The translations under genes were made by a program, and so were the position numbers. From positions 64,001-128,000 of IMG/VR virus record IMGVR_UViG_3300033067_002132: a stretch of 64,000 nt of DNA. One strand, 5' to 3'. The notes beneath the pieces were generated by a model, which worked only from the letters and a program-made list of their open reading frames with translations, was not told the origin of the DNA and made no database searches. The stretch comes from a virus (lineage: Duplodnaviria; Caudoviricetes). This document shows positions 6,313 through 25,271 of this stretch, piece by piece (the stretch's first letter is position 1; each line of letters begins with the position of its first letter).

Positions 6313-6436
6313 GTTAATGTAGAAAATTGGCAAATCAGGGGGTTTGTACCGAAAACAGAAATCACAGGGAAGACCGCCGATTAATGATATAGCTGTTAGA
6401 CATTAATTTATGTAGGTTCGACTCCTACCATTAACT
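6313..6436 (+). ncRNA. Class II (Leu/Ser-like) tRNA scaffold with a 25-nt anticodon loop
   Basis: GTTAATG/CATTAAC acceptor, D-loop TTGGCAAA, long variable stem ATTAATG/CATTAAT, T-arm GTAGG-TTCGACT-CCTAC. Confidence 0.75.
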
Positions 6437-13122: not shown

Positions 13123-13216
13123 GGTCCCATAGTTTAATGGTAAAACGCACGGCTTATACCCGTGATAAGCTCTAGATTTGGGCACGTTCTAGGTTCGAAT
13201 CCTAGTGGGACTACCA
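13123..13216 (+). tRNA. trnI: tRNA-Ile(TAT) with a long variable arm (94 nt)
   Basis: GGTCCCA/TGGGACT acceptor, CACGG-CT-TAT-AC-CCGTG, ~24-nt variable region, CTAGG-TTCGAAT-CCTAG, ACCA end. Confidence 0.9.
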
Positions 13217-16970: not shown

Positions 16971-17390
16971 GTGATTAAACATTTACTTTCTTTTTTATTG
17001 TGTTGTAATGTTTTTGCAGGTCAATATAATGAAAATGAAATAGTAGCAACCGTTTTAATTTTAGAAGCAGGCGGTGAAAAAGACGATAGATGTATGTCCG
17101 CCATTTACGAAGTAATTTGTAATAGGCAAATAAAAAGACATTTATCAAAAATAGAGGTTTGTTTACAAAAATATCAATTTTCTGAATTTAATGATGGAAA
17201 AATCAAAGAAAAAATAGCGAAAGCAAAAAAGCACCCAAAGTACAAGAAAGCCCTAAGTTTAATTAGTATGAAAACTGATTATACTCAGGGCGCGACGCAT
17301 TTCTACTCTACTAATATTGCCAAACCATACTGGGCAAAAAAGATGAAAGAAACGCTTGCTTTAGGAGCGTTTAAGTTCTATAAGGAATAA
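16971..17390 (+). CDS. SleB/CwlJ-like cell wall hydrolase (Hydrolase_2)
   Basis: Signal peptide; EAGGE..A.YEVICNR..VC.Q..QFS..GATHFY..PYWA. Confidence 0.85.
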   Translation: MIKHLLSFLLCCNVFAGQYNENEIVATVLILEAGGEKDDRCMSAIYEVICNRQIKRHLSKIEVCLQKYQFSEFNDGKIKEKIAKAKKHPKYKKALSLISMKTDYTQGATHFYSTNIAKPYWAKKMKETLALGAFKFYKE

Positions 17391-17816
17391 AATTTTATGC
17401 AAAACTTTCTAAATATCGCGAAAATAAATCGTAATAATTTTATTAAACGTTGCAGTAAATGCGACGAGGCAAAACTTGATTTATTCGAATATAAAGATAG
17501 TGTATTCGATGAAAAATTCACGCTAATTTGCTCGTGCTGTCATTACGTAATATTTAATCTCTCTGTTTTGGACTAAGAAAAACAGTTATTGACTTTCAAT
17601 CGGCGATTTAGTATTTTCTAACCATGAAACTTGACCAAGCTCTCGCCTATCTCAAAAGTTCCGGTTTCAAAATCACTCAGAAAGGCACAAAAACTTTTTT
17701 GGTTCAAAAGGGGAATGATCACCCTTGGCAAGCGGGAGAAGAGAAATTAATTAGAGTCGCGGAAAAGTACAAAAACATTCAAGAATAATTGACGCAAAAC
17801 GTTCACGTTTAAGTCT

Positions 17817-18023
17817 ATGCAAATCACCCGCAGATCCCCCCTTACTGGCGAGAAGAATACTCGCGAAATTCCCGTGACTTTTCAAAACATAAAAGAATGG
17901 CAAAATGGTAAGTCAATTCAAGACGCTATGCCAAATCTTTCGGCGGAAGATCGAGAGTTTATTATGACTGGTTATACTCCCGAAGATTGGGCGAAAATGT
18001 TTCCGTCCGAACCTGAGAACTAA
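17817..18023 (+). CDS. Conserved phage hypothetical protein
   Basis: ITRRSPLTG..IQDAMPNLSAEDREFIMTG motif. Confidence 0.75.
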   Translation: MQITRRSPLTGEKNTREIPVTFQNIKEWQNGKSIQDAMPNLSAEDREFIMTGYTPEDWAKMFPSEPEN

Positions 18024-18071
18024 GTAAAAATTCTTATTGACGTTTAGCGCGGAATCGTTAGATTCAAGCCT

Positions 18072-19077
18072 ATGAAATTAACTAAGTACCCTTTCAACGG
18101 AAGATGGCGCGTGGAAATGGTAGGAACGATTGACGAAATCGATTCTTATCTAATTCGCTTATACAATATTGGTGCGACAAATGCGACTTTTGAGCGCGAT
18201 CAATTGGAGACGTTTTTTCATATTGACTTGGAAAAGAAACGGTGGGAAAAGGCTTTGTCCGGCTGGTTGCAAATCCAAAATGCCGAAAACGAAACGCGCA
18301 AATTGTGCCGAATTGCACAGAAACAGCGCCGGGATAAAATTCCCATTTATTCGCAAGTAATGCAACGTTTGGCGCAAGAAGAAATCGCGGCAATTCCTAT
18401 TCCTGAAATCAAATCTGCTGTCCTGTCGCTTAAGAATCACGACTATAAGGGAATCTCTTATATCGTGGGGACCGATCATGAGGCGGAAATGATGAGTAAG
18501 GAAACGGAAATCCCTGCCAAAATTAACGTAAAGAAAATGACGGCGCGAAATTTTTCTTGCAACGCAACGGCAAGCGAGTAAGGATGAAGCCATGAACGGA
18601 CAAGAATTTTCCCAAAAGCAAACGGCAATCTTTAATAAGTATGAAATCACAGATCCGAGAATGGTCTCGATTATTTCATGCCAAGCTTGGGAGGATAATC
18701 ATTCGGACGGTTATGAAGCCGTCCTAGTAAAAACTGAAAAATATTGTCAGTTTACTGAAACGATCTTGAGTGCGTTTTTCGCTAGTATTAAATTGCGCTA
18801 AACAAGAATATAAGCCATGCCTCATTTGCCCATTTCTTTAGCTCTTTTGACAGATTTAGAAAGAGAAGAAAGCATAAGACGGGAAAGAACGGAAAAATAT
18901 ATCTTTGAAATAAAAGAAGCAAAGAAAGAATTCGAAAAAATGAATGAAATACATCACGGTTTTATTGGTTATTGGCCCGAAATGAACGAGCAAAAAAAGG
19001 CCAAACTATCCAGCCCTAAATGGGCCGATTTTCGGAAAAAGGGAAAAATCAAAGGGTGGCAGCGGAATAAACGTTGA
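18072..19077 (+). other. Hypothetical CDSs (18072-18581, 18592-18801, 18817-19077)
   Basis: ORF track; leaderless promoter at 18037. Confidence 0.65.
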
Positions 19078-19140
19078 CGCGGAAATTAATTTAGGATAGG
19101 CTTTCGGTGTTGTGAGATTGGAGAGAGTTGAAACAACAAC

Positions 19141-19284
19141 GGCGGGGTAGTTTAATTGGTAAAATATTTTCCTTTTTTTGGTAGGCAATAGGGATCAATA
19201 TTGCCAATATCCGAAACGAAATCAAGACTGATCCTCTTGAATAAAATAAGGAAAAAGTTGCGGGTTCAAATCCCGCTCTCGTCT
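19141..19284 (+). ncRNA. tRNA scaffold with the anticodon loop replaced by a ~70-nt kissing-loop domain
   Basis: GGCGGGG/TCTCGTC acceptor, D-arm GTTT-AATTGGTA-AAAT, stem TTTTCCTT/AAGGAAAA, T-arm GCGGG-TTCAAAT-CCCGC. Promoter TTGACG 19074 / TAGGCT 19097. Confidence 0.8.
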
Positions 19285-19365
19285 GCTCCAATAATTAGCT
19301 AAAGTTAAATAAAGCTAAAAAAACAGAAAAACGAGGCGTCAAATTATACGCCTACACAACACAAA

Positions 19366-20806
19366 ATGGAATATAAATATCTTCCCCATTACGACGATAA
19401 AACGTCAATAAGATTCGGCGAACTACCTTTGCCAAAGGAGATTTTTGCGCGGCAGGAATTAATGCGCGAAATTGGATTTACTGCGGGCGAGGAAGTTTGG
19501 AAGAAAGGGTATGGATACGTACCCATTTATTATTTCGTTCGCGAATTAACGAAAGACGAGCAAAATCTTTTGTGCCTTTGCCCCTTGACGGATGAGACGG
19601 CCGATGGTAAATTTCGTTCATGACGCCAATTACGCTGACCCCCGAGCAATTGCTTAACCTGCTTAAAGATTGCAAACGCGAAAGCGTTTTGTGCTGTAAT
19701 AGTTCGCTGCCAATTAAGCTTGTTTTGATCACTGAAATGCGTGAGGGACCGACAGGCTATTTGCCGCGCAGTATTTTCGGTGTTTATTACAAAAATCAAG
19801 TCGGGCGATTTTTTAATTCTTTGGAGGAAGCAATTGAATGCTATTGCCGAATTGAGAAAGCGAACGAAAGATTTCCTTGACGCTCAAAGACATTAGTTAA
19901 TACTCTCTCGCATGAACTCCACGATACTCAAAGTCTCTTATACTGGAACGCAGATTATCATCGCGAAAACGCTGGCCGCGATGCGAATTAAGAATCCCGC
20001 GCCGATTAAGTTCTATCCTACCAGAGCGGCGAGAGGAACTCATAACGTTGAGCGTATGTTCACGGTTTACCTTGAAGTTGAGACCACCACGGGGCGAATT
20101 CTGAGCGGCGGCGTGCAAGTTAACTAAATCTTTTATGGTAACAAAAACCTTTGCTTTCCTTCCTCTTAATAACAAGCAAGCAACGCCCGAATTTCGCTCT
20201 TTTATTTTGTCATTTATTGAAGGAATTAGAGTAGCGGAATCGGCACGCGGGCACGTTGTGCGAATTGAACCTACACTAAGCGGGGATTGTTCCGGTTGGT
20301 TGCTTGTATGCGAAGCGGAAATGGGAAAAGTTATTGGACAGTATTTGTCAAATCTCAATATTGAGCTTCGCGAGATTTGAAAACGCCCACTTGACAAAAA
20401 GCAAAGTCTCAGCTAACCTTTAGAAGTCGGTAGGAAAACAACGAAACGAAACAACACTATGAAGAACGAAACCTTTGTGAACAGTCTCTTGAATGCGTCG
20501 GTCCCTACGGGCAAGATCGATTTGGCCGCGGTCCAGGCGGCGATTCAGGAAAAGAACGATGAGAACAACCGCGCCAAGATCGAACGCGCCCGCAATCTTT
20601 TCGAACGGTTGAATGGGGAAGTCACGTCCGCCGTGGAAAGCCTGCGAATCATTCGTCAGCAGGAAAAGGAAGCGAAGCAAACCGTGATTCGGCATGCTGC
20701 CGCTTTCGCCACGTTCAAGGAAACGGGCGATCTCAATAAGGTCGCGGCGATCCTGTACCCCGGCGAGAAGATCGCGCAGGAAAATTTCGTCCGCCGATAT
20801 TCCTGA
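19366..20806 (+). other. Hypothetical CDSs (19366-19623, 19620-19880, 19912-20127, 20135-20380, 20459-20806)
   Basis: ORF track, + strand, several with their own promoters. Confidence 0.65.
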
Positions 20807-21097
20807 TCGCATAACAAACTCGACTAGGCGAGTATAAATAGATAATTAAGCCTAGTGCGTTTGCGGGTAAAACCCCGCAAGGTTTATGATATTAATTATA
20901 TATTATCTCCGAATTGCAAGTGCCTTGCGCCGCGCAATTTATCCCTGAAACAACAGGGGTTAAAAGCTTCAAGCTAAAGGAAAAAAAAGCCTTCGTGCTG
21001 TCGGTGTTTGTTTCCTTCGTTGAGTGGGGCGGGGAGAGAAATCTTCCCGCCTCATTTGTTTATTGACATGCGCGGTGCATTTAGCTAATTTGATCGC

Positions 21098-21607
21098 ATG
21101 CAAGACCTGACCGCTTCTCTCGCCGATAGTCTTTCACGCAAACACTATCGCAAGACGCCTGCCATGTTTTCCGTCATGACTCTGCGCGATAAACTTCCTT
21201 TCGATTCTAAGCCTCTCGCCGATGATCCTAATAAAATTGCCGATTATTGTCGCCAAGCAATTATTGGCAAAAAAGGGTACAATCCCGACGTGGAAAGTTG
21301 TTGGGTTATCGTAATGAATACGCGCCGACGAATTGAAGGGCATTTTCTAGTAGCAACAGGAACTCTCGACACTTTGTTAGTTCATGCTCGCGAAGTGTTT
21401 CGCGGCGCTATTCTTGCCAATGCTGCGGCGATTGTTCTTATGCATAATCACCCAAGCGGCGACCCGACTCCGAGCGAAGCTGATATCCGCGTGACCCGAG
21501 AAATGATTAGAGCGGGCCAACTACTAAAAATCGAAGTATTAGATCACGTAATTTTAGGAGAACCTAAGCATTGCTCGCTTAAGGAATTAGGGTATTTTAC
21601 TTATTAG
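21098..21607 (+). CDS. radC: RadC-like JAB domain protein
   Basis: E..W..NTRRR..GTLD..VHAREVFR.AI..NAAAIVLMHNHPSGDPTPSEAD..LDHVI. Confidence 0.92.
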   Translation: MQDLTASLADSLSRKHYRKTPAMFSVMTLRDKLPFDSKPLADDPNKIADYCRQAIIGKKGYNPDVESCWVIVMNTRRRIEGHFLVATGTLDTLLVHAREVFRGAILANAAAIVLMHNHPSGDPTPSEADIRVTREMIRAGQLLKIEVLDHVILGEPKHCSLKELGYFTY

Positions 21608-21656
21608 GCAAAATTTGCCTATTGACTTTTCATTTTCGTTCTGATAGCTTTAAATT

Positions 21657-22061
21657 ATGCAAATCGACAAGCAACTACTCATCGCCCGCAACACGCTTCT
21701 CAACCTGAACGAAGAGTTGGCTGGATATCGCATTTACTTCATGGGTGATAAATTCCGCGAGGATACCACGGTACAAGTTCATGAAATTCTTTCGCGAATT
21801 CTGATCCTTAAAGACCAAGTGGAAACCGCATTGGAAAGTGTCACAATGCCTTTCAAGGTTCAAGTGGCGGCGGGCGAATTGAATCCTGGCGATAAAGCTT
21901 TTTTGATCGAAACGAATCCCGAAATGGGAATGGAAGAAACCCTCGACTGGACCTGTACATATATCGGCCAAGAAAAGGTTCTTTTCGAATACGTAAAACA
22001 AGGAAAACAAACGAGAACCACAATGCGGAATAAAACTGAGATTGTTTGGAAACTGCGCTAA
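21657..22061 (+). CDS. Hypothetical protein (leaderless)
   Basis: TTGACT 21622 / TAGCTT 21645, ATG 6 nt later. Confidence 0.7.
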   Translation: MQIDKQLLIARNTLLNLNEELAGYRIYFMGDKFREDTTVQVHEILSRILILKDQVETALESVTMPFKVQVAAGELNPGDKAFLIETNPEMGMEETLDWTCTYIGQEKVLFEYVKQGKQTRTTMRNKTEIVWKLR

Positions 22062-22295
22062 ATTAAATTCGATTGAAAAATCCCCGATTCTAGAATTTAT
22101 TGCTAAATAAAAAGCCTACTCAAATTCCCTGGTTCTAGAAAGTCGCGCTAAATAAAAGTACGTAGCGCGGACCCTGGCCGATTGGGCGCATAGCGGGCCG
22201 AACTAGCCGGGGCAATTAGAGTAGAAACCCTTAAGAATTAAAACTATGGTAAAAACCCTTAAGAACAGGCGTTATGGTAAAAACAACTAAGATCA
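22055..22295. repeat. Intergenic imperfect direct repeats (45-bp and 28-bp periods)
   Basis: GCTAAAT at 22057/22102/22147; TTCTAGAA at 22088/22133; AAACCCTTAAGAA at 22225/22253; TATGGTAAAAAC at 22245/22273. Confidence 0.75.
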
Positions 22296-22367
22296 GCACC
22301 TAGAAGAAAAGAGCTAAGGAAAAGAACTATTGCAACGCCAATGGCTTTCTGCCAAGCTTTCGCTCCT

Positions 22368-22916
22368 ATGAATCCTATTGAAACCCTAAAGACATTCGCG
22401 CACAATCCTCCCGGATTTGCCAGTTTTACCTATACGGCAAAAGGTAGCGGGGAAACTGCGCGGCATACCGTCATCCTCGGATTTGACTACAACAAGAGTG
22501 TGGAAAAGAGCCTAACCGATTTGGCGTGCATTAATCGGGCGGATTTCCCCGCAATTTCGGATGAATTGTGGCCCGTTGCCGTTTCGGAAATTCGGGCCAG
22601 TCTCGAAAAGACGCTGGCCGCGCACGTAAGGGGCGAGCAAAACGCGGACTACACAAAAAAGGATCAGTATTTGTCCCTGGGGTTTTCTGGTATGCACGTT
22701 AACCTTAATGACGGAAGCCTACAAGTTTTCGGGCTGGCGCACGCTAAGACTGTCCTGGTGCCCGGCGAATATAAGCCCGTCAAATCCCGTCCCCTCACGC
22801 TGGCCAAGGAAGCCATCCGCAAGACGCTGGCCGTGGGAAAATTCCGCGAGTTTGCCTTTGACTCCGGGACGATACACACTGTCCGCATGAACGGTTCGAC
22901 CCTCGAAATCGAGTAG
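22368..22916 (+). CDS. Hypothetical protein (start corrected)
   Basis: ORF track; promoter TTGCAA 22330 / CAAGCT; GC-rich codons. Confidence 0.7.
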   Translation: MNPIETLKTFAHNPPGFASFTYTAKGSGETARHTVILGFDYNKSVEKSLTDLACINRADFPAISDELWPVAVSEIRASLEKTLAAHVRGEQNADYTKKDQYLSLGFSGMHVNLNDGSLQVFGLAHAKTVLVPGEYKPVKSRPLTLAKEAIRKTLAVGKFREFAFDSGTIHTVRMNGSTLEIE

Positions 22917-23347
22917 GGGGAAAGACTATGCTCTTTCTCCTAATCGTTATCATTATCATCCTTTGTGCCGCTTACCATGAATAGAATAAAAAACGCTATC
23001 CTAATTCTTTTTTGGGTAGGCGTAGGATTCGGCGTTATTTTCGTAGTTTTTACCTTTATTTCGAACCTTTATTCTTCCTAGTTATGAAGCTAACCTTTTG
23101 CCTTGTATGGGGTCGCAATCGCCAGTTTCGCCTAAGCGAGCAAGGCTTAGCTGTGCTGCGCGTCCTTCGTCCCTTTGGCCCCTTGCCGTTCCTGCGGTGG
23201 GATTCCGTTGTGCGATTCGATCCTGGCCTTGCGTTGCTTGCGTTGCTCTTTTCGCTCCTTTTCGCATTTACCTATTGACGGCAAAAACCGTGTCTGATAC
23301 CGTTTCCTTGTCGGTCGCAGAAACAACCAAAACAAATTAGATAGAAC

Positions 23348-24166
23348 ATGAAAGCCAAACTTTACTTGCACGCTGGCGGAGCCCTTACAACGTGGGACGC
23401 GCTTAATGCTCTGCCCACCCCGCCCGCGATTGGCAAACACGTCCCTGTTGGACACGCGGCCTTTTTGGACCGCATCGAAAGACTGTTGCCCGTGGACGGA
23501 TTCAGTGTGATCGAACGCCAGATTGCCGTCGCAAAGGACGGGGCGCGGATGTTTGCGCTCCTTCAACTAGCCCACCCTAGCCTAACGTGTGGCGATGGGT
23601 CAGGGTATATCATGGGTGTGCGAAACTCTCACGACAAGGCGTTTGCCGCTTCTGTTACCGTGGGCCGTTGCCCCTTCGTTTGCGATAATCTCGCGTTTTC
23701 GTCCGGGGCGGATGGTGTTGTCGTTAATCGGCGCCATATTGGGGGCGTGCATCGTGACTTGGGCGGAATGGTTATGGAGTTAATCGCGGGGCTCGCCGAT
23801 CGATTCCGGATTACGGATGCTCGGGACGCTTGTTATCGGGGCGCTACGCTTGACAATCGGGACGCTGATCACTTCGTTTTAGAGTTGTACCGCAACGGGG
23901 CGATTGGTTGGGGCGAAGCACGCCGTGTTCTCGCGGAGTACCACGGGACGGCCGTTAACCCCGACAAGGTTGAATTCCGTCATGCGGAATTCGAACCCCG
24001 GACCGCCTATTCTCTTTTCAACGCTTTTACGCAAGAATTGAAGGGAATTGACGACAAGGGTGTGGCCCACCCTAACGTTTGGGAACTCCCGAAGGCGACC
24101 GCAATCGCGTGCGAAGTGTTCGACCGCCTTTGCACCTTCAACCCCGCCGGGGCGATTGTCGTCTAG
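23348..24166 (+). CDS. DUF932-family protein
   Basis: H.PV.H; GVRNSHDKAF..G..PFVCDNLAF; RRH; TAYSLFNAFT. Confidence 0.8.
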   Translation: MKAKLYLHAGGALTTWDALNALPTPPAIGKHVPVGHAAFLDRIERLLPVDGFSVIERQIAVAKDGARMFALLQLAHPSLTCGDGSGYIMGVRNSHDKAFAASVTVGRCPFVCDNLAFSSGADGVVVNRRHIGGVHRDLGGMVMELIAGLADRFRITDARDACYRGATLDNRDADHFVLELYRNGAIGWGEARRVLAEYHGTAVNPDKVEFRHAEFEPRTAYSLFNAFTQELKGIDDKGVAHPNVWELPKATAIACEVFDRLCTFNPAGAIVV

Positions 24167-24240
24167 TGTGACTCACGGGGAAGGGGGCTTTCCCCCTTCC
24201 CCCCTCTCCTCAATTCCAATCTCTACCAACACTAAAAACC

Positions 24241-24552
24241 ATGAATTCCACCATCGCGAAAAATCTCGAAAACTGGCGTGAGTCCCGCGGGCTTAACATT
24301 CGCCGAAACGAAGTCAACCGAATCCTCGCTCAACGGGTCGCAAACGAAGCGGCAGAGAACGCCCGGCGAGCCGAGGAAGCCTTGCAAGCGGGGCTTGCGT
24401 CAGATCGGATCGAACGTGCCAAACGTATGGGGGCTACCCCGCCCGCTTCTGCTATCGACGTAAAGTTTCGGCGCGGGTCGGATGGAAGGGGCGGGCGTAC
24501 TTTCTGGGAATGGATTTTCCCCAAGCAAATCGAGACTGTCGCGGCCTATTAA
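24241..24552 (+). CDS. Hypothetical protein, last gene of the early region
   Basis: ORF track. Confidence 0.6.
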   Translation: MNSTIAKNLENWRESRGLNIRRNEVNRILAQRVANEAAENARRAEEALQAGLASDRIERAKRMGATPPASAIDVKFRRGSDGRGGRTFWEWIFPKQIETVAAY

Positions 24553-24573
24553 GTAAAAGCGCGTAGGCTATCG

Positions 24574-24603
24574 CCCCCTAGGTCACAAGCCTAGGGGGTT
24601 TTT
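24574..24603 (+). terminator. Rho-independent terminator
   Basis: CCCCCTAGG-tcacaag-CCTAGGGGG-TTTTT. Confidence 0.85.
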
Positions 24604-25271
24604 CTTATACCCCGCCAACGCTCTAGGATCGACGGAGAAGCGTTTTGATTGCGCGACGATACCAACAGAACGCCAACAATTAATGATAACGCCAGACAAA
24701 CCGCTGTAGCTACCCTATAGGCACGGTCGATAGCGCCGAAAGCCAACTAACTGTTAAAGGAAGCTAGGCAAAAAGTGCCGTTTTGAACTAAATGGGCGCG
24801 AATAAGAAAGATCACTAAGAAATTATGCCCCCCAATTTCTTAATTAATTTTAGTAGTGAAATTTCGTAGATGCCCCCGGGGAGGTCGAATTAACTCGCTC
24901 ATTATCATTTAAACCTTTTATTATATATTCTTTCTTTCCCCACATATATATAAATCATTAATAACGTATTATAATTTAATCTTTTATTGTATATATTACT
25001 CTCTATATCTTTATCTATTATTCCTCTTCTAAAAAGAAGTCGAAGTTATAGTTTTTTGTAAAAATGGCGGGGGTCATATTTATTCTATAGCTTTATTATA
25101 GATATAGGGGGGGTATTTCTTATTCTATATAGATTTAAAAATATTAATAAATATTAGTTTTTATAAAAATGGCCCGAAGTATATTTTTTATAGACCTTTG
25201 TTATAGATACTCTTTTTTTATTCTGTGTAATAATGTTTAGATTTCCGCCCGAATATATTTAATATAAAACA

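Follow-up and report, generated by a model that had tools for sequence, protein, structure and literature searches.

A conserved tRNA-like phage RNA with a three-way junction in place of the anticodon loop

In a phage genome of 193,745 bp and 29.4% GC (IMG/VR), we identified a conserved, structured RNA in which a tRNA body carries a three-way junction with an invariant core in place of the anticodon loop. The RNA is encoded on the + strand at positions 19141-19284 of the window, i.e., the 64,000-nt stretch of the phage record analyzed here, and positions given below are those of the window unless marked as genome or locus positions. Whether this sequence is a tRNA-derived structured non-coding RNA and not a decoding tRNA is, in our judgment, evenly balanced; we nevertheless favor this explanation over each alternative because both the tRNA body and the insert covary, the junction is invariant, no CCA is encoded, and removal of the insert would give an apparently non-canonical product. 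The RNA is a fresh variation on two partly known themes, i.e., phage-encoded tRNA-like stable RNAs and the short, unexplained inserts in phage tRNAs. An earlier note on this DNA had described a kissing-loop domain and had listed a natural tRNA scaffold displaying an aptamer or ribozyme domain among its readings; the scaffold survives the analyses described here and is now somewhat favored, but the kissing-loop domain is not the conserved part.

Fold of the tRNA-like RNA

Searched against the Rfam tRNA model (RF00005), 19141-19284 (+) gave a score of 47.2 bits (gathering score 29; E 5.7e-7). The acceptor, D, and T arms aligned in full, in agreement with the earlier description of these three arms as intact, and approximately 75 nt in the anticodon loop remained unaligned. 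Based on this alignment, the acceptor 5' strand GGCGGGG (19141..19147) pairs with 19277-19283, where the 3' strand UCUCGUC together with the discriminator U spans 19277..19284. Three of the acceptor pairs are G-U pairs. The discriminator is followed by GCTCC, confirming the earlier observation that there is no immediate CCA. The D arm (GUUU/AAUUGGUA/AAAU; 19150..19165) contains A14, G18, G19, and A21, and the T arm, as aligned to the Rfam tRNA model, is GCGGG-UUCAAAU-CCCGC (19260..19276). The conserved nucleotides U8, A14, G18, A21, U54, U55, and A58 as well as the elbow pair 19:56 are all present in the tRNA body.

The anticodon arm departs from this pattern. Instead of a 5-bp anticodon stem with a 7-nt loop showing an anticodon, we found an 8-bp stem, TTTTCCTT/AAGGAAAA (19167-74/19248-55), which encloses 73 nt (19175-19247), as the earlier note had estimated. 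The 5' strand of this lengthened stem, which we refer to as P1 (UUUUCCUU; 19167..19174), holds would-be nucleotides 32 and 33, and its 3' strand (19248..19255) holds would-be nucleotides 37 and 38. The enclosed sequence had been described as two hairpins, and both of these, GGCAATA-GGGATCAA-TATTGCC (19184-19205) and TCAAGA-CTGATCC-TCTTGA (19222-19240), are recovered with predicted pair probabilities of at least 0.86. What had been overlooked is a third helix of 6 bp, UUUUGG (19176-81)/CCGAAA (19211-16). This helix sits at the base of the first hairpin and makes the insert a three-way junction formed by P1, P2, and P3.

Going round the junction, the connecting strands are 1, 5, and 7 nt long. 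The first, J12 (19175..19175), is a single unpaired U (C in relatives) at the would-be wobble position 34. P2 (19176..19216) consists of the outer helix UUUUGG/CCGAAA, an internal loop UA/AAUAU, and the inner hairpin GGCAAUA-GGGAUCAA-UAUUGCC; it is followed by J23, the junction strand CGAAA (19217..19221), by P3, a 6-bp hairpin UCAAGA/UCUUGA with the 7-nt loop CUGAUCC (19222..19240), and by J31, the junction strand AUAAAAU (19241..19247). Pairing in P1 and P2 takes up the would-be anticodon bases 33 and 35-37, and, therefore, no anticodon loop is on display. A fold constrained to the cloverleaf lies only 1.5 kcal/mol above the free minimum.

Conservation in a related lineage

Using protein searches with three neighboring ORFs together with one exhaustive HMMER search, we found one related lineage, which is represented by two short Logan contigs, L023 and L026 (1.2-1.7 kb). 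The proteins encoded beside the RNA in this lineage are 75% and 63% identical to those in the window, and both contigs contain a tRNA-like gene at the same position and in the same gene order (40.7 bits with the Rfam tRNA model). The insert in L023/L026 is shorter (~51 nt), yet it folds into the same three-way junction. The covariation statistics rest on three sequences, which amount to two independent lineages, and the counts are small.

For these three sequences, RNAalifold recovered, unguided, the cloverleaf together with P1, P2, and P3. The consensus comprises 37 pairs, of which 6 have changes on both sides and none is broken. When only the junction domain was considered, all cells were paired, compared to 39-65% when the partners were slid by 1-3 columns. 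This domain contains five doubly changed pairs (four in P3 and one in P1), and none of 500 shuffles reached these counts. The helices of the insert thus covary in relatives, which is the check that the earlier note had proposed for the insert.

In P3, four of the six pairs are changed on both sides in L023/L026 (AUAAAG/CUUUAU), and the lengths of stem and loop are unchanged; in P1, the U-A at pair 7 of the window is replaced by C-G in the relatives. The outer helix of P2 is kept with two one-sided changes. The inner 7-bp hairpin of P2 is confined to this phage, and the relatives have, instead of the long inner part, a 7-bp hairpin with the loop CCUAGGAA. The tRNA body shows a similar pattern: one T-stem pair is changed on both sides (C-G to U-A in the relatives), the tertiary elbow pair 19:56 covaries from G19-C56 to A19-U56 in L023/L026, and the one-sided changes in the acceptor stem, which is 8 bp in the relatives, preserve pairing. 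In the junction strands CGAAA and AUAAAAU, 12 of 12 positions are identical in all three sequences. The hairpin loops differ at approximately half of their positions, and the 5' flank is unalignable. Altogether, the comparison of the two lineages supports that the RNA structure is under selection. Downstream of the RNA, the alignment with the relatives identifies a conserved 3' trailer, GCUCCAAUAAU(U) (19285..19296), which is near-identical for ~12 nt before the sequences diverge, while the 5' leader is not conserved. This trailer is possibly a 3' processing context.

The feature highlighted in the earlier note was the complementarity between the two hairpin loops of the insert. In this phage, these loops do contain six contiguous Watson-Crick complementary bases (GGATCA/TGATCC), and a 6-base match would arise by chance with a probability of 0.001-0.002 in random loops of equal size and of 0.007 in shuffled versions of the actual loops. 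In L023/L026, the two loops (CCUAGGAA and CCGAAAA) match each other over 2 bases at best. Because the complementarity is lost in the relative, the kissing loop is either lineage-specific or accidental; judged by this comparison, it is not the conserved feature, and it is the junction strands that are invariant instead. If the loops do pair, then pairing between two molecules would be more plausible than pairing within one because P2 in the window is approximately twice as long as P3, so that intramolecular pairing would need a sharp fold-back. A palindrome of 6 nt, CCUAGG, in the P2 loop of the relative could likewise mediate intermolecular pairing, although it was noticed after the fact and carries little statistical weight.

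Exact and degenerate pattern scans of the IMG/VR collection, the JGI metagenomes, and the GTDB genomes, together with protein-based searches of IMG/VR, found no further members, and the few pattern matches obtained were coding or unstructured chance matches. Similarly, a covariance model of the junction domain (R1) identified no paralogue in the whole phage genome or in any of the loci, and a regular expression for the junction strands matched, with a hairpin between the strands, only the RNA described here in the genome. A 22.5-bit R1 match in L013/L017 was rejected, as it has no tRNA context. Because neither the scans of the collections nor the R1 model found others, the family is known from this phage and one relative only.

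Genomic setting and transcription

The large terminase of the phage has a weak likeness to its counterparts in SPbeta-like Bacillus phages, with 32% identity across half of the protein. The tRNA arrays of the phage are located at genome 3-25 kb, and the tRNA-like RNA sits outside them, in an island (17000-25000) that has 35-55% GC compared to the genome average of 29% and ends abruptly near 25000. Around the RNA, this island contains small ORFs of no assigned function as well as genes for a RadC-like JAB protein (21098-21607) and a DUF932 protein (23348-24166). RadC and DUF932 genes are frequent companions of early anti-defence genes. The structural look-alikes of the protein encoded by the downstream 85-aa ORF are weak (TM ≤0.58), and we did not count them as evidence. 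An ORF antisense to the RNA (19091-19291) was judged to be spurious.

The same region contains a pistol ribozyme at 20818-20887 (+), which was detected as a full-length Rfam match (68.6 bits; gathering score 34.5) and lies 1.5 kb downstream of the tRNA-like RNA, flanked by a 115-aa ORF and the RadC-like gene. Separately, we noted that the 1516-aa protein P0005 has 19 repeated stretches resembling residues 84-126 of the protein encoded by the 169-aa ORF at 18072-18581. The early region (genome 1-64 kb) encodes NADAR, NAPRTase, PRPP-synthetase-like, HD_4, and radical SAM proteins, two YopX proteins, and HNH and LAGLIDADG endonucleases.

The earlier note had assigned the RNA a sigma70 promoter of its own, and this assignment did not stand: the candidate, TTGACG-17-TAGGCT, matches 3 of 6 positions in the -10 hexamer, and the promoter scan does not report it. 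In the relatives, the 5' end of the RNA falls on the stop codon that terminates the upstream ORF, and a conserved promoter is, therefore, lacking. With a poorly matching promoter candidate and an RNA starting on the upstream stop codon, co-transcription with the neighboring genes followed by processing is more likely.

Among the 30 tRNA-model hits of the genome, 25 have a CCA directly after the discriminator; the CCA is absent in the RNA described here and in its relatives. The five CCA-less hits include a second insert-bearing tRNA-like RNA at 6313-6436 (+; 29.4 bits), which has good acceptor and T arms and in which two large hairpins replace the anticodon arm and the variable region. It has a CCGAAA..GAAAUCA-like string in common with the RNA at 19141-19284, but the resemblance is probably due to chance because the R1 junction model does not match it. 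Other tRNAs of this phage are also unusual. Variable arms of ~20 nt occur in tRNAs assigned to Ile(UAU), Gln(UUG), and Asn(GUU), which is unusual for these identities; tRNAs with long variable arms map to 13123-13216 (+) and to genome 3050-3140, 10954-11047, and 17155-17247. Many of the array tRNAs (genome 3-25 kb; L028 and L029) have non-canonical T loops, e.g., GCGCAAU and GUGCAAG compared to UUCRANY, unlike the RNA at 19141-19284, which keeps the canonical GG/UUC elbow. Finally, the tRNA set seems rich in C34 anticodons (CUU, CUG, CGU, CCU, and CAA), although the phage strongly prefers A-ending codons.

Explanations for the RNA and known systems

In the explanation that we favor, the RNA would descend from a tRNA-Lys-like gene, of which the L-shaped body (acceptor, D, and T arms and elbow) would have been kept by selection, while the 7-nt anticodon loop would have been swapped for the three-way junction, with P1 of 8 bp, P2 of variable length, and P3 of 6 bp with a 7-nt loop. 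We suggest that the RNA is co-transcribed with the surrounding small early genes and released by host RNase P and RNase Z, which would read the acceptor/T-arm and the elbow. As the gene has no encoded CCA, the host CCA-adding enzyme may extend the RNA. The tRNA body would then confer processing and stability, and the ~145-nt product would stay unspliced. Its working part would be the invariant junction (one pyrimidine, CGAAA, and AUAAAAU), held by the freely covarying helices, and this junction would most likely be a putative protein docking site. In this phage, the 6-bp loop-loop pairing may in addition join molecules.

The alternative that survives best is an intron-containing tRNA-Lys, which the earlier note had also listed; it is less favored than the scaffold, but we regard it as a serious possibility. 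Here, the insert of 70 nt (~51 nt in the relative) between nucleotides 36 and 37 would be cut out, and host or phage enzymes would ligate the exons; the conserved three-way junction would set both splice sites side by side, and the spliced product would decode AAA, or AAG in the relative. In favor of this possibility, ARAGORN, which misses the gene in standard mode, in intron mode reports a well-formed tRNA-Lys(UUU) whose 70-nt intron immediately follows the anticodon. In this register, the window has the loop UUUUU/AA and the relative the loop CUCUU/AG, i.e., Lys(UUU) and Lys(CUU), both with U33 and A37. Thus, lysine-identity bases are retained between the lineages, and the wobble base is changed by a transition. 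Moreover, the tRNA body is intact with a covarying elbow, both putative splice sites are located at most 2 nt from the junction, and a conserved junction would also be expected of a splicing signal. Lysine is mostly encoded by AAA (75 per 1000 codons compared to 8 for AAG), and the phage genome contains no other tRNA-Lys(UUU), even at relaxed thresholds. However, tRNA-Glu(UUC) is also absent from the phage despite 54 GAA per 1000 codons, and the missing U34 tRNA, therefore, carries little weight. Likewise, conservation of bases 33 and 35-37 is expected in any case because they are placed in helices P1 and P2.

The predicted product argues against splicing. U33 and A37 are obtained for both lineages in a single register, in which the tRNA without the insert would have either an anticodon stem of 6 bp or one additional base following position 26, i.e., two bases between the D and anticodon stems. 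In addition, positions 32 and 38 form a Watson-Crick pair, which covaries from U-A to C-G in the relative. Decoding tRNAs avoid a Watson-Crick pair at 32-38, whereas the continuous helix P1 requires one. The lack of an encoded CCA, which contrasts with 25 of the 30 tRNA-model hits, the 8-bp acceptor stem of the relative, and the location of the RNA in the GC-rich island far from the tRNA arrays also speak against a decoding tRNA, as does the fact that ARAGORN calls an intron in no other gene of this genome. No intron-less allele was found: both lineages carry the insert, and pattern scans with the tRNA body found no other copy.

The known routes for intron removal do not fit the insert either. 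Searches of the phage genome with the Pfam families RtcB, RNA_ligase, RNA_lig_T4_1, and tRNA_int_endo (PF01974) gave no match, and the predicted structure is without 3-nt bulges 4 bp apart, i.e., it has no bulge-helix-bulge motif. Group I introns of bacterial and phage tRNAs interrupt the same position in the anticodon loop. They are, however, at least ~200 nt long and have a terminal G, while the insert is 70 nt, ends in U, and has no Rfam group I match at E values up to 10, in agreement with the earlier conclusion that it is too short for a group I intron. Two further routes were considered and set aside. For excision of the insert by RNase P and RNase Z, there is no acceptor-like helix from the insert's own ends and no CCA, and a mobile insert at the DNA level is unlikely, as there are no terminal inverted repeats and no target duplication. 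To our knowledge, excision of a tRNA intron and ligation of the exons by a route of the kind considered here is not known in bacteria. It is less likely than not, though a serious possibility, that the insert represents a new kind of intron, i.e., a three-way junction of 50-70 nt with an invariant junction uniting the splice sites and re-joining of the exons without group I or bulge-helix-bulge machinery.

A published precedent for short inserts in phage tRNAs does exist. The tRNAs of Lak megaphages carry 'enigmatic' short introns, which are reported to be present or absent among close relatives and one of which is itself tRNA-shaped (Devoto et al. 2019, PMC6784885). As in the Lak tRNAs, the insert described here is located in the anticodon loop, is far below group I size, and would be removed by no known mechanism; finding it takes a tRNA search that allows for introns. 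Unlike the Lak inserts, it folds into a three-way junction with an invariant core, occurs in both of the lineages compared, and, if taken out, would leave an anticodon arm that appears non-canonical.

The RNA also has likenesses to stable RNAs outside the decoding tRNAs. Phage T4 encodes two stable RNAs, species 1 and 2 (rnaC and rnaD), which measure 119-139 nt and have paired ends as well as a tRNA-like T arm. However, T4 rnaC has no Rfam tRNA match (the best is tRNA-Sec with 17.5 bits; E 0.7) and sits inside the tRNA array, while the RNA described here forms a full cloverleaf (47.2 bits), has its extra module exactly in the anticodon loop, and lies outside the arrays. YrlA, a Y RNA bound by Ro60/Rsr, likewise joins a tRNA mimic to a second structured module. 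The topology of YrlA is the opposite, with the ends at the anticodon side, and the Rfam models for Y RNA and YrlA gave no match in 19100-19330 at E values up to 10. No match to the Ro60 domain (Pfam TROVE) was found in the phage genome, which does encode a protein with DUF7788 (E 2e-51) and DUF2828 domains at L028:162-1262 (+), i.e., genome 162-1262; this protein might conceivably be a distant Ro60-type partner. The pRNA of phi29 contains a three-way junction and two complementary hairpin loops that pair between molecules. The RNA at 19141-19284 resembles it in these two features and differs from it in having a tRNA body, no Rfam pRNA match, and a loop complementarity that is lost in the relative; it lies 10 kb from the packaging genes and has no other link to them. 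More generally, searches of 19100-19330 at E values up to 10 gave no match to Rfam families other than tRNA. As for purine-riboswitch-type aptamers, there was no Rfam match, and the loop-loop pairing is not conserved, dropping from 6 to 2 bases in the relatives.

The earlier note had also raised the possibility of a decoy, i.e., a tRNA-Lys look-alike without a cleavable loop that would compete for a tRNA-Lys anticodon nuclease such as PrrC, RloC, or PARIS AriB. The apparent derivation from a Lys-type tRNA and the location in an island with RadC and DUF932 genes would fit such a role, but with bases 33 and 35-37 paired in P1 and P2, the known recognition surface is not displayed, and the neighboring ORFs show no link to an anticodon-nuclease system. 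We find no support for a decoy and consider it improbable.

A small self-cleaving or self-excising ribozyme, with the invariant junction as the catalytic core of an undescribed class, appears more improbable still. Small ribozymes typically show invariant junction strands between helices that covary, and such ribozymes are known to cluster, with the pistol ribozyme lying 1.5 kb downstream. Nevertheless, the hammerhead, twister, twister-sister, pistol, hatchet, hairpin, and HDV-like ribozymes had no Rfam match in 19100-19330 at E values up to 10, while the same search tool does detect the pistol ribozyme at 20818-20887. Moreover, the junction strands of 1, 5, and 7 nt differ from those of 1, 7, and 4 nt in the hammerhead ribozyme, CUGAUGA is absent from the junction, and a single cleavage site could not remove the insert.

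Lastly, a decaying tRNA pseudogene with a meaningless insertion would account for the absence of CCA, the location outside the tRNA arrays, and the three G-U acceptor pairs, but six doubly compensated helix pairs and the change at 19:56, with no pair broken while the neighboring proteins are only 63-75% identical, together with the invariant junction strands, make this the least credible explanation and leave it close to refuted.

The two readings that remain have different implications. In engineered tRNA scaffolds, a lengthened anticodon stem carries a foreign structured RNA, and the tRNA body provides processing and stability. If the RNA described here is unspliced, then it would be the natural counterpart of this laboratory design, in which the tRNA body would support processing and stability and present the junction module, and the partner of this module would be new early-infection biology. 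If the RNA is spliced, then it would be a structurally distinct and experimentally tractable addition to the unexplained short introns of phage tRNAs, and mutation of its compact conserved element could lead to the machinery. With an RNA of ~145 nt, simple RNA experiments would suffice under either reading.
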